A program made the position numbers and the translations under genes. A DNA stretch of 64,000 nucleotides from NCBI GenBank assembly GCA_048359995.1, contig DBGCPK010000017.1, forward strand, positions 137,240 through 201,239, in the 5' to 3' direction. The notes beneath the pieces are model-generated. The model was not told the DNA's origin, ran no database searches, and was given only the letters and a program-made list of their open reading frames with translations. Origin of the DNA: Bacilli bacterium. Its GTDB lineage: Bacteria > Bacillota_I > Bacilli_A > RFN20 > CAG-449. This document shows positions 36,616 through 39,849 of the stretch, piece after piece (the first letter of the stretch is position 1; each line of letters starts with the position of its first letter).

Positions 36616-38328
36616 ATGAAGAAAAAAATCCGTTTTCTATGCGCTTTGTCGCTATTAACAATCACATCTGTCGGATTTCTTTCTGCGCGCGAAAAAGATT
36701 TTAAGGAAAAAACCGCCTTGAAATCCGCGGAAAAGGACTTCAAGAGCGCCGCTTTGACGATTTACAATTCTTCGGATTACATCGACGATTCTTTGATCGA
36801 CGAATTTGAAGAAAGATACAACTGCCGTGTCAATTACTACACTTTTGACACCAACGAGACGATGTACAATCAATTCACTTTGCAGCCGGAGGGAACTTAC
36901 GACTTGATTTGCACATCGGATTACATGATTCAGCGCATGGTAAGAGAGGGAAGACTTCAACCGTTCGATATCGCCGAAGAATGCCCTGTTTACGATCAAT
37001 ACGCTTCCCAAGAAGTCCGAGGAAAACTGAAAGGAATGCTTGCCGATACCGACGGAGACGGAATTAAAGAAACTTCTCTCGACGAATATGCCGCCGGATA
37101 TATGTGGGGGACGTTGGGAATCATCTACGATCCGTTTTGCAGCGAAACGATTCGCGAAGATGTAAAATCTTGGGACGTATTTTGGGACGAACAGTACAGA
37201 AATTTGATTTCGATCAAAAATTCCATGCGCGATACATTTGTCGTCGGTTTGATGCACGCTTACAGCGGCTCTCCGTATTCGGACGTCGACGATTTGGCCG
37301 TGCAGGCTCGCGAAGTTTTTTTAAGAGAGATGGAAAGTGCCGTTTCCGAAGAAGAAAAGGATAATGCGAGAGAAAAATACAATCGGGTGATCCAGTCGAT
37401 TTTCGACATGGTAATCAATGAAGAGGACTACAAACCTGTGTTGGAAACGGTCAAAAAAGAGTTGATTTCCTTGAAAAAAAATATCTTTGGTTTAGAAGTG
37501 GATTCGGGGAAAAACGATATCATCACCGGAAAGATCAAAATGAATCTCGCTTGGTCGGGCGATGCGGTATATTCCATCGACGTTGCTATGGAACAGCAGG
37601 GGAAAGTTTTGGAATACTATGTGCCGGAAGAGGGAGGAAACGTTTGGTACGACGCGTGGGGATTACCGAAAGGGGCGAATCGGGAATTGGCTTGCCGTTT
37701 CATCGATTTTCTTTCCGAACCGGAGAACGCCGCGCGGAATATGGATTACATCGGATATACTTCTTTCATCACCTGCGACGAAGTCCTCGATTTGGTCACT
37801 TCTTGGTATGGTGTCGGCGAATACTATGAGGGAACGGAATATACCGCTCCATATGTCGACGAAAGCGGAGAAGAAGTAGAGGGATCCGTGGTTGCTTATC
37901 AGGGAAATTTTTATGCTTGCATTCAAGATTCTCTCGGAAATCTTCCGACCGATGAAAACTACTTTGAAAAGATGGAAGAAACACCGGATTTCGATGAGAC
38001 TTACGATCTATCTTATTTGTTCAAGGGGAATATCGACGAATCGAGAAGCGCGGTGATTTATCCATACTTAGAAAGCGCGAACCAGTTGAAAACGCAATAT
38101 CCCGATAAGGATACCTTAGCCCGTTGCGCGGTGATGAACGATTTCGAAGCCGCTAACGACGATGTCGTCATTATGTGGGGGCAAATCAAAGCCTATACCG
38201 ATATGACCCCGTATTATGCGATTTTGATCATCTTCGCTTGCGGAATCTTGGTGGTTTCCGTTTATACTTTGATCGTAAAGAGAAGATCGATTCGCAATAA
38301 GCGACGTCTGTCTTCGATGACTAAATAG
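36616..38328 (+). CDS. potD: Polyamine-binding protein PotD-like, extended, with C-terminal TM anchor
   Basis: Signal peptide. PotD core LTIYNSSDYID...TSDYMIQRMVREGRLQPFD. Internal insertions. C-terminal hydrophobic helix then a basic tail. 570 aa. Confidence 0.75.
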   Translation: MKKKIRFLCALSLLTITSVGFLSAREKDFKEKTALKSAEKDFKSAALTIYNSSDYIDDSLIDEFEERYNCRVNYYTFDTNETMYNQFTLQPEGTYDLICTSDYMIQRMVREGRLQPFDIAEECPVYDQYASQEVRGKLKGMLADTDGDGIKETSLDEYAAGYMWGTLGIIYDPFCSETIREDVKSWDVFWDEQYRNLISIKNSMRDTFVVGLMHAYSGSPYSDVDDLAVQAREVFLREMESAVSEEEKDNAREKYNRVIQSIFDMVINEEDYKPVLETVKKELISLKKNIFGLEVDSGKNDIITGKIKMNLAWSGDAVYSIDVAMEQQGKVLEYYVPEEGGNVWYDAWGLPKGANRELACRFIDFLSEPENAARNMDYIGYTSFITCDEVLDLVTSWYGVGEYYEGTEYTAPYVDESGEEVEGSVVAYQGNFYACIQDSLGNLPTDENYFEKMEETPDFDETYDLSYLFKGNIDESRSAVIYPYLESANQLKTQYPDKDTLARCAVMNDFEAANDDVVIMWGQIKAYTDMTPYYAILIIFACGILVVSVYTLIVKRRSIRNKRRLSSMTK

Positions 38329-38614
38329 CGGAGAGTATGTAGCGATAGCATAATCACAAACGGGTATAAGTCCGGATCCGATCGTGATAAAAACGACGAG
38401 AACGAATCATGCGAGACGCAAAGCAAGCAGAGATAGGAAGAAAGTTAATGAGGAGACGACGATGTTGTTTTAGTGCATCGATAAATCAAAAATTCCCGAT
38501 GCCGCTGGGTGCGAAGAGGAAAGAATCTTTATGCGTAGATCGACGAATATCTTTTTACGATTCGATAATCACCGCAAAGAAAATTCATTGCTCGCAAACG
38601 AAAAAAGAATGTTT

Positions 38615-38715
38615 ATCGTTGACGGATTGTTGAAAAATACATCGATCGTCTAAGAAAAAAGCCCCGAGATCAGGGGCTTTTTGGTTTATTTTCAAGATGG
38701 AGCTAGCGACGGGAA
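38615..38715. repeat. 101-bp direct repeat, copy A (contains an 18-nt copy of the tRNA-Gly 3' end)
   Basis: Matches 39693..39793 at 98 of 101 positions. Includes the GCCCCGAGATCAGGGGC terminator hairpin and TGGAGCtAGCGACGGGAA. Confidence 0.85.
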
Positions 38716-38761
38716 ACAAGTATTTAATGGGGATATTGCAATAGCAATATCGATTTTACAT

Positions 38762-38790
38762 TTGACAAGTTTAAATTTTTGACATATAAT
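38762..38790 (+). promoter_or_regulatory. Consensus sigma-A promoter, antisense to the small peptide gene (candidate antitoxin sRNA promoter)
   Basis: TTGACA, 17-nt spacer, TATAAT. It is followed by a stem-loop at 38792..38828. Confidence 0.55.
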
Positions 38791-38846
38791 AATAGCGAAG
38801 AGTCAGAGAGAACCCCACTTCGCTATTCAATGGGAACTCTGATTTT

Positions 38847-38924
38847 TTATTTTATCAAGAGAATGAGTAGAATAATTATAAGAATTAAGAAGAAATATTT
38901 AAATAAATCCTTTAAGTCTTTCAT
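38847..38924 (-). CDS. 25-aa hydrophobic peptide, type I toxin-like
   Basis: Product MKDLKDLFKYFFLILIIILLILLIK. Strong RBS AAAGGGGGTGAGAGT-ATG. One TM helix with charged ends. Confidence 0.5.
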   Translation of the reverse strand: MKDLKDLFKYFFLILIIILLILLIK

Positions 38925-38929
38925 ACTCT

Positions 38930-38949
38930 CACCCCCTTTCATGGGGGTG
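38930..38949 (-). promoter_or_regulatory. Shine-Dalgarno-sequestering hairpin in the 5' UTR of the peptide mRNA
   Basis: Minus strand reads CACCCCC-ATGAAA-GGGGGTG. The 3' arm is the SD. Confidence 0.45.
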
Positions 38950-38996
38950 TCTCTCTGACCCGAGTTTTTTAACGTCGTTTTCTTTCGACAATTATC

Positions 38997-39026
38997 ATCA
39001 TAATGAGAGGAATGGGAAAAAGTCAA
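38997..39026 (-). promoter_or_regulatory. Putative promoter of the peptide mRNA
   Basis: Minus strand TTGACT, 18-nt spacer, TATGAT. Lies about 65 nt upstream of the ATG. Confidence 0.35.
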
Positions 39027-39067
39027 TGACTTTTCGAAAAGTTCATATTCGAAATCGGTGCTGACTT

Positions 39068-39260
39068 TCAACGTTCCTTTTTCTTCACGACCGGCACCCC
39101 ATACATCGCTAACGGAAGAGTGATTGTAAGATTCTTAGGTTTCCAGTAAATTGTTTTTGTAAGTGAACCATCTTTTTTGACGATTTTAAAATAAGATCTT
39201 TCAGGTAATTCTTTGAGTGTGCAAATACCGATGAAATCACGTGATACTTTTTTTTGCCAT
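39068..39260 (-). pseudogene. RBS-preceded ORF broken at an A8 homopolymer (frameshifted or phase-variable small gene)
   Basis: AGGAGGT, 8-nt spacer, ATG GCA then A8. Frame 0 stops after 7 codons. The +1 frame stays open for about 60 codons (VSRDFIGICTLKELPERSYFKIVKKDG...). Confidence 0.3.
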
Positions 39261-39334
39261 TTTTAAATACCTCCTATATAAATGAAAAAAAGACTTGCTA
39301 AACAAAGAGCAAAAAGGTAAGATAAAAAAGAAGA

Positions 39335-39607
39335 TTACTCAATTAAGTAGTAATCTCCGATTATTGATTGTAAATGTTCTTTGAGAACCTTTACAACTGT
39401 TGGGTTGGTAACCGAAAGGTTACCTTTTTTGATGTTATCGAGAAAGATCTTTTCCAAAGGATTACTTGGATTAGGGCTTACCATCTGCTGATAAAAACTA
39501 TTGTTGATTGAGTTATTATCGCCGATCTGAATCTGTTCGGATTGCGGAGAAACGATCGGTGCGTATTTATTTTTTAAGATTCGGTTTAAAGCGGATATTA
39601 AAGACAT
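39335..39607 (-). CDS. Hypothetical small protein inside the islet
   Basis: ORF is open to 39694. Start is uncertain because of a weak RBS. No recognisable motif. Confidence 0.3.
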   Translation of the reverse strand: MSLISALNRILKNKYAPIVSPQSEQIQIGDNNSINNSFYQQMVSPNPSNPLEKIFLDNIKKGNLSVTNPTVVKVLKEHLQSIIGDYYLIE

Positions 39608-39692
39608 CTCTCTGAAATTGGGACATTCTTCTACGAAAGTAACGGAAGAAGTATATATCCACGTGAAAGAAGAGAGAAGAAAAGTTGCGGTC

Positions 39693-39793
39693 ATCGTCGA
39701 CGGATTGTTGAAAAATACATCGATCGTCTAAGAAAAAAGCCCCGAGATCAGGGGCTTTTTGGTTTATTTTCGAGATGGAGCGAGCGACGGGAA
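39693..39793. repeat. 101-bp direct repeat, copy B (overlaps the genuine tRNA-Gly 3' end)
   Basis: See copy A. The repeat continues into the intact tRNA body. Confidence 0.85.
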
Positions 39794-39849
39794 TCGAACC
39801 CGCATAGCAACCTTGGCAAGGTTGTGTTCTACCACTGAACTACGCTCGC
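39776..39849 (-). tRNA. tRNA-Gly (anticodon GCC)
   Basis: 74-nt cloverleaf by hand fold. Acceptor GCGAGCG/CGCTCGC, T-loop GGTTCGATTCC, anticodon loop TTGCCAA, encoded CCA. Confidence 0.9.

Follow-up and report, generated by a model that had tools for sequence, protein, structure and literature searches.

A tRNA-Gly-linked islet in an uncultured gut Bacilli genome: a probable decayed remnant of an integrative element with a predicted type I toxin-antitoxin module

The DNA considered here is a 64,000-nucleotide stretch (the window) of contig DBGCPK010000017.1 from an uncultured gut Bacilli lineage, and its subject is a small islet, with a 977-bp interior, that lies between the gene of a PotD-like solute-binding protein (potD) and a tRNA-Gly(GCC) gene followed by trx. 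The islet is bounded by two direct copies of a 101-bp segment, copy A on the potD side and copy B on the tRNA side, which are identical at 98 of 101 bases (with mismatches at 38620, 38694 and 38704) and directly outside which, at both ends, identity collapses. The right end of each copy consists of the last 18 nt of the tRNA, TGGAGCGAGCGACGGGAA, encoded CCA included; copy A has a single mismatch in this core, in the acceptor-stem part, and the intact tRNA (identified by ARAGORN, and scoring 70.6 bits with the Rfam tRNA model) continues from copy B only. With up to three mismatches allowed, the 18-mer was found in the 64 kb at these two places only, the chance expectation being 0.1. The G + C content of the interior is 29–40% (mean, 34%), compared with about 42–50% in the flanks and 46% in the window as a whole. 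An earlier reading of the sequence (the original prediction) had described the position and identity of the repeats, their common end in the tRNA with passage into the tRNA from copy B alone, and the AT-rich interior, and on all these points it is confirmed.

From left to right, the repeat unit is made up of the last 11 codons of an integrase gene with the stop codon, a terminator, a 15-nt spacer and the 18 nt of the tRNA. The terminator hairpin, AAAAAGCCCCGAGATCAGGGGCTTTTT, is present in both copies, scores on both strands and serves both the integrase gene and the convergent tRNA gene. The initial description of this hairpin as the tRNA's own terminator holds as far as its presence in both copies is concerned but not as to its origin, in that the hairpin is contributed by the element and terminates the integrase gene as well, the sister species discussed below having different hairpins after the same tRNA. 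The possibility that the whole 101 bp is a genuine long attachment (att) core was considered and rejected, because 36 bp are integrase codons and the sister species are unrelated in sequence from one base past the tRNA. For the latter reason the 83 bp that do not belong to the tRNA are regarded as element, and not host, DNA. Thus, the att core, originally taken to be unusually long, resolves into an 18-bp tRNA core and an 83-bp element arm (integrase tail and terminator), the arm being included in the shared repeat because the integrase 3' end and the terminator directly abut the core.

The integrase tail is joined to a longer reading frame in copy B, and not in copy A. This plus-strand pseudogene reads DCGETIGAYLFFKIRFKADIKDISLKLGHSSTKVTEEVYIHVKEERRKVAVIVDGLLKNTSIV up to the stop codon and corresponds to the C-terminal approximately 63 residues of a tyrosine integrase, in which the RHT box is mutated to GET and is followed by LGHSS, by Y-x-H with the catalytic Tyr, and then by the stop. 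Three PHROG integrase families match the stub by their C-terminal ends (E = 1e-4 to 4e-3), as do the C-termini of the NCBIfam XerS, integron-integrase and tyrosine-recombinase models. A word-indexed protein search with the stub gave no match; three proteins (P0005, P0006 and P0007) were recovered when 1.84 billion representatives were searched exhaustively with HMMER, all of them integrases or integrase fragments. The best match is P0005, an integrase that is intact at 376 aa (PF00589, E = 2.5e-21) and is 76% identical over the C-terminus in the HMMER alignment and identical at 33 of 47 positions (70%, E = 6e-17) by BLASTP, in an alignment extending across the repeat-encoded tail (...VAxIVD...). 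P0006 and P0007 carry the homology of the stub back to the RHT box. P0006, the second-best match, was also considered as a same-site relative and discarded, its gene being found beside obg and tRNA-Met, a different site. No other integrase-like sequence is present in the window. 'Integrase-less', as the islet had been called, is correct in functional terms, but not for the stub that persists next to the tRNA.

P0005 is encoded on a contig (L141) from another sample of the species, on which a partial rolling-circle Rep_trans gene, a 97-aa open reading frame (ORF), the integrase gene (int), a terminator, tRNA-Gly(GCC) and trx follow each other. The trx protein of this contig is 100% identical to that of the window, and the DNA between tRNA and trx is about 98–99% identical to that of other contigs of the species. 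A contig from a second sample (L164), 96% identical to L141, ends inside the tRNA and extends the element leftwards: ahead of the 97-aa ORF and int it encodes a membrane peptide of 59 aa, a protein of 474 aa and a Rep_trans protein of 424 aa (E = 1e-31). The second of these, which combines hydrophobic segments at its N-terminus with a Walker A motif (P-loop), may be a coupling protein. Where the window has the pseudogene of approximately 63 codons beside the att junction, L141 and L164 have intact homologues. In this element family the integrase gene runs towards the tRNA, whose regenerated 3' end is immediately followed by the right arm of the element, with the integrase stop codon and a bidirectional terminator. 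The integrase tail, at about 75–79% nucleotide identity, is all that these elements have in common with the window at the DNA level, so that they are taken to be relatives of the islet's parent, and not the parent. The relatives of P0005 in IMG/VR are at most 33% identical. Contig L147 (6001–6535), from another organism, encodes a 91-aa integrase stub that belongs to the same family and is convergent with a tRNA-Gly(GCC); the core is present there only once, and beyond that tRNA follows an adenine methyltransferase gene.

The three nearest species in GTDB (L011, L012 and L013) keep the order potD, tRNA-Gly and trx, with potD–tRNA spacers of 1.0–3.0 kb and unrelated content. Their homology to the window starts one base past the 3' end of the tRNA, and each has its own, different terminator hairpin. 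The islet is absent from all of them, a variable presence that goes along with its atypical G + C content. The comparison of the potD–tRNA-Gly interval in relatives, as proposed with the original prediction, has therefore yielded islet-free species, but not a contiguous empty site. Its central claim, that the repeats are the attL and attR of an integration at tRNA-Gly, is borne out by the integrase stub at attR, by the intact relatives at the same tRNA (L141 and L164), by the longer islets described below and by the islet-free sister species.

In place of the islet, the closest of these species (L011, 8097–8594) has an orphan CRISPR array, with eight copies of the 36-nt repeat GTTTGAGAGTAATGTGAAACAAGGTATGACTCTTAC, the last of which is degenerate, and 30-nt spacers; no cas genes are found there between potD and the tRNA. 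In L012 (7888–10120) the same interval contains genes for a GntR regulator, a mannose-6-phosphate isomerase and a 103-aa protein, and in L013 (2137–2439) a 100-aa gene homologous to the latter. The cargo in L012 and L013 indicates that the potD–tRNA-Gly gap is a general hotspot of gene flux.

The repeats are not a product of assembly. Contig L001 is identical to the window, and L002, an independent assembly of another strain with flanks 99.6–99.7% identical, contains both repeat copies and conserves two of the three copy-specific differences. In many samples, short-read Logan contigs that come from trx end within copy B and those that come from potD end within copy A, and interior Logan contigs bridge one repeat copy to the other. 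Taken together, these observations rule out the assembly artefact that the original prediction had allowed for.

Evidence of a larger predecessor was obtained by way of the islet proteins, which are near-ORFans with only two clusters each among 5.8 billion. One of these clusters led to L091, a contig of another strain with a longer islet between repeats of the same sequence. Starting at the tRNA, L091 carries a shorter integrase stub, a repressor-like XRE/HTH_3 gene devoid of its N-terminus (E = 8e-9) and genes for a membrane protein of 113 aa, a KilA-N protein of 265 aa and the 71-aa P0004, followed by ORF63 and the toxin-like gene that are also found in the window. The KilA-N protein (919–1716; KilA-N, E = 7e-25) aligns over nearly its whole length with the PADLOC phage-defence candidate PDC-S22 (E = 2.7e-126). 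Its relatives, with up to 69% amino acid identity, are encoded on many IMG/VR contigs, and this gene of the long variant is the only one with phage relatives. These contigs were considered as possible parents of the islet and rejected, their KilA-N genes having unrelated integrases as neighbours and a different arrangement.

By comparison with L091, the window is missing positions 423–1990 of that contig. At the junction (39494–39497) there is a 4-bp microhomology, and the deletion has left the final 13 codons of the XRE gene joined to the C-terminal 52 of P0004. The window, for its part, keeps 58 bp more of the integrase gene (39533–39590), L091 having instead 248 bp of the XRE gene. Since each retains sequence around the int/XRE junction that the other lacks, the window cannot have come from the L091 type by deletion alone; the two arose by independent deletions from a fuller ancestor in which the XRE and int genes were divergent. 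A decayed integrative element, one of the two origins initially entertained, is thus supported by the stub, the longer variant and the independent deletions, while the other, a compact mobilisable cassette, has received no positive support.

The same deletion accounts for ORF119, originally listed as a hypothetical protein, which is an accidental chimera whose N-terminal part is the antisense of the integrase stub (table 1). ORF63 is interrupted in the window by a frameshift in a poly-A/T tract at codons 3–5, the length of which is 8 in the window and L001, 7 in L002, 9 in L091–L097 and 10 in L098. Only lengths of 7 and 10 preserve the reading frame, and ORF63 is intact in L002 and L098. This variation could reflect phase variation by slippage or plain pseudogene drift. 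The AlphaFold2 model of ORF63 has a confidence score (pLDDT) of 51, and no family match was found for ORF63, P0004 or the toxin-like peptide in Pfam, PHROGs, NCBIfam or PADLOC. At the position corresponding to 39294 of the window, where it is absent, L002 has an extra 37 bp, AAAAAAAGAGTTTTTCGAAATAGTCGAAAAACTCAGA, which form a terminator-like hairpin between ORF63 and ORF119.

Table 1. Annotated features of the islet and its borders, in window positions.
Feature	Position	Strand	Remarks
Spacer between potD and copy A, lineage-specific	38329..38614	.	no match in sister species; no integrase similarity; 99.65% identical in L002
Repeat copy A (attL side)	38615..38715	+	last 11 integrase codons and stop, 38615–38653; terminator, 38656–38682; orphan tRNA-Gly 3' end, 38698–38715
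Predicted promoter of antitoxin small RNA, TTGACA-17-TATAAT	38762..38790	+	12/12 consensus positions; identical in all strains aligned
Predicted antisense (antitoxin) small RNA	38797..38856	+	stem-loop followed by U-run; fully complementary to 3' untranslated region of toxin mRNA
Predicted toxin mRNA	38797..38990	-	5'–3' clamp of 38945–38959 with 38802–38816; hairpin 38930–38949 sequesters Shine-Dalgarno sequence GGGGGTGAGAG
Type I toxin-like ORF, 25 aa, MKDLKDLFKYFFLILIIILLILLIK	38847..38924	-	100% conserved in all strains
Predicted toxin promoter, TTGACT-18-TATGAT	38997..39026	-	10/12 consensus positions
ORF63, small all-beta ORFan	39068..39260	-	frameshifted in window by 8-base poly-A/T tract, 39248–39255
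ORF119, accidental chimeric ORF	39335..39694	-	antisense of integrase stub, last 13 XRE residues and C-terminal 52 residues of P0004
Tyrosine-integrase pseudogene	39540..39731	+	PHROG, NCBIfam, HMMER, BLASTP; last 11 codons within copy B
Repeat copy B (attR side)	39693..39793	+	integrase tail; bidirectional terminator, 39734–39760; 18-nt 3' end of live tRNA, 39776–39793
tRNA-Gly(GCC), integration target	39776..39849	-	intact; identical in sister species bar one position

The potD-proximal part of the interior contains what is predicted to be a type I toxin-antitoxin module. The 25-aa peptide is small and hydrophobic, with a core of 16 hydrophobic residues, and the Rfam BsrG model matches at 38844–38950 with 26.4 bits (E = 0.0026), below its gathering score of 55. 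In the predicted fold of the mRNA the ribosome-binding site is occluded within a CACCCCC/GGGGGTG hairpin, and the 168-nt toxin RNA (−55.5 kcal/mol, z = −5.76) is more stable than any of 200 shuffled sequences. The predicted antisense small RNA (sRNA), approximately 55 nt long with its end at about 38850 (−15.5 kcal/mol, z = −2.55), would have its own promoter and terminator and overlap the toxin mRNA. Across nine strain contigs the toxin ORF, both promoters and the hairpins are invariant. In the region of overlap between the sRNA and the 3' untranslated region of the mRNA, a loop of approximately 25 nt (at about 38817–38840) occurs as three unrelated alleles of different lengths when the window is compared with L002 and L092–L098, in strains whose flanks are otherwise 99.7% identical. 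All that is kept in this loop is a TCGCT motif that pairs with AGCGA at the 5' end of the sRNA. The module is probably still functional and type I toxin-antitoxin-like. A degenerate pattern of the toxin had no match in IMG/VR.

Searches for other copies of the islet were negative. The 977-bp interior had no BLASTN match in phage and plasmid collections, IMG/VR likewise had none for the integrase stub, for ORF63 or for a 90-aa core segment of ORF119, and scans of JGI metagenome DNA with the left junction of copy A and with the tRNA–trx spacer both came back empty, so that the species is apparently absent from that collection. As to a prophage or satellite origin, structural, packaging and replication genes were not found in the islet, nor was any interior match in phage, plasmid or IMG/VR sequences.

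By taking these data together, we consider it probable (roughly 0.72) that the islet is a non-autonomous, decayed remnant, similar to a cis-mobilizable element (CIME), of an integrative element that had inserted into the last 18 nt of tRNA-Gly(GCC). A tyrosine integrase would have inserted an element at the tRNA 3' end, and a second, related element would later have integrated into a tRNA already flanked by the integrase tail and terminator of the older remnant, either by sequential accretion or as a tandem copy, and either site-specifically or by homology across the shared arm. Both junctions would then consist of the 83-bp element arm and the 18-bp tRNA core, and later deletions would have trimmed the older copy down to position 38615. 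An earlier related occupant of the site, or a tandem pair, is called for by the sequence to the left of the attL core, which is 97% identical to the element arm, whereas insertion into a naive tRNA would leave host sequence there. The 286-bp spacer to the left of copy A may be a final vestige of that older occupant. Such a pathway of deletion and accretion has been described for CIMEs and integrative mobilizable elements (PMC5704250), and the stub on L147 demonstrates that the resident remnant state it invokes exists elsewhere. Action of an integrase within the 18-nt core is favoured, because the right boundary of the repeat is where intact elements join the tRNA.

Several points weigh against this proposal. 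A direct full-length parent of the islet was not found, and the P0005-type elements have a different terminator, different cargo and a G + C content of 47%, as opposed to 34% in the islet. Within the species there was neither an empty site nor a strain with a single repeat, which would read ...GAATGTTT, one 101-bp unit and TCGAACCCGC.... The 286 bp to the left of copy A lack recognisable element homology, so that the older remnant would be represented by the 83-bp arm alone, and site-specific and homologous recombination are indistinguishable by sequence. Finally, the toxin-antitoxin module falls under every curated threshold and matches no Pfam or NCBIfam toxin family (Fst, TxpA etc.).

The alternative closest to the favoured one is a single RecA-dependent acquisition, in which a circular DNA containing the interior and approximately 100 bp of homology recombined with a resident integrase tail, terminator and tRNA without any action of an integrase. 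A stretch of 101 bp at 97% identity is enough for homologous recombination, the product would be the same as that of accretion, and the left boundary of the repeat falls within integrase coding sequence and not at a recognisable arm site of an att; the right boundary, however, lies in the tRNA, 18 nt from its 3' end, where intact P0005 elements join. Such positions near the tRNA 3' end are reportedly those used by tRNA-targeting integrases (Williams 2002). We regard this acquisition as unlikely and, since it still requires a resident older remnant, as a variant of the accretion scheme more than a true alternative to it. The islet could also be a minimal cassette that is mobile to this day, in other words a working CIME or satellite without an integrase of its own, which P0005-type integrases of elements using the same tRNA-Gly would excise, transfer and reinsert in trans, with the toxin-antitoxin module as its sole selfish cargo. 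Both att-like repeats are indeed kept with a nearly intact 18-nt core, the species harbours intact integrases of the same family that use this target, and related elements can mobilise CIMEs in cis (PMC5704250). However, the islet is found at one locus of one species only and encodes ORFan proteins, no copy is present in viral, plasmid, phage or JGI metagenome collections, the divergence of flanks and islet between strains fits vertical inheritance, the ongoing deletions and frameshifts amount to decay, and the arms next to the core differ from those of P0005 elements, all of which make present mobility improbable. A broader version, in which a minimal selfish cassette moves occasionally by means of P0005-type integrases and combines a new type I family, with a diversifying antisense loop, and a slippage-switched small gene into a contingency or defence module, is to be taken as speculative and doubtful.

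An ancient local duplication or an assembly artefact, with no mobile element involved, would agree with the failure to find an empty site and with the presence of both copies in all sampled strains of the species with an identical trx, bar the P0005-occupied ones, the contigs of which cover the tRNA side. Against it stand the integrase pseudogene that abuts the tRNA, the low G + C content of the interior, the XRE and KilA-N genes of the long variant and the entirely different spacer DNA of the sister species, and with independent assemblies and many short-read contigs in agreement this explanation is effectively refuted and carries hardly any weight.

Type I modules are common on prophage-like regions, for which a stabilising role has been proposed (PMC6563280). 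By analogy, cells that lost the islet through recombination between its repeats would be put at a disadvantage by the module, and this would partly account for the persistence of the islet.

Beyond the islet, the PotD-like protein encoded at 36616–38328 is unusually long (570 aa), and at its C-terminus a hydrophobic segment precedes a basic tail (...YYAILIIFACGILVVSVYTLIVKRRSIRNKRR...), a feature that is conserved in relatives and suggests a C-terminal membrane anchor.

The locus thus offers a sequence-resolved case of the build-up and erosion of a tRNA-linked island in an uncultured gut Bacilli lineage, in which one tRNA-Gly is reused by an integrase family and has occupants that range, within the population, from intact through partly deleted to nearly erased. 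It also advises caution with automated callers of att sites and islands, as the apparent 101-bp att is an 18-bp core with a duplicated element arm. The probable type I module, with its hypervariable antisense loop, is a candidate new family; to our knowledge, no type I toxin-antitoxin family has been described in this group.

Among known systems, the islet resembles most closely the CIMEs and the tandem accretion at att sites exemplified by islands related to ICESt1 and ICESt3 of Streptococcus thermophilus, as reviewed in PMC5704250, where this work is credited to Pavlovic 2004 and Bellanger 2011. The likeness extends to an origin by deletion, to the reuse of a site by related elements and to a tandem or accreted history that explains composite junctions, and also to the 18-nt cores and arms kept at both ends and to the loss of genes, evident from the truncated integrase with its GET motif, the larger L091 and the independent deletions. 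The islet differs in its target, a tRNA-Gly in an uncultured gut Bacilli lineage, in the very small size of the remnant (1 kb) and in a repeat that takes in the 83-bp element arm. The intact elements on L141 and L164, in which a tyrosine integrase at a tRNA 3' end is accompanied by a P-loop membrane protein, Rep_trans and a small ORF, are in turn similar to integrative mobilizable elements of the Rep_trans/MobT type in Firmicutes, which are known to integrate at the 3' ends of tRNA or ribosomal-protein genes (PMC5704250). With L141 and L164 the islet shares the integrase tail only; no relaxase or Rep remains, and the cargo (the type I toxin-antitoxin module and ORF63, with XRE and KilA-N in the long variant) and the G + C content differ.

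The predicted module is comparable to bsrG/SR4 and txpA/RatA from prophage-like regions of Bacillus subtilis (PMC3834814, PMC3531473, PMC6563280) in encoding a small hydrophobic peptide with a convergent antisense sRNA on the 3' end of its mRNA, in the structured toxin mRNA with an occluded ribosome-binding site and in its location on an integrated element. It differs in that the peptide has 25 aa only, with charged residues at the N-terminus instead of the C-terminus, and in that the BsrG score is 26.4 versus 55 bits with no toxin protein family matched. With classical tRNA islands and prophages the islet has in common the repetition of the tRNA 3' end at both borders, a regenerated tRNA that is intact at one of them, atypical G + C content and absence from relatives, while the integrase gene next to the junction is here a stub of approximately 63 codons and structural, replication or transfer genes are lacking. 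The structure of the islet is of a well-known kind, and current understanding of such elements is not overturned by it.

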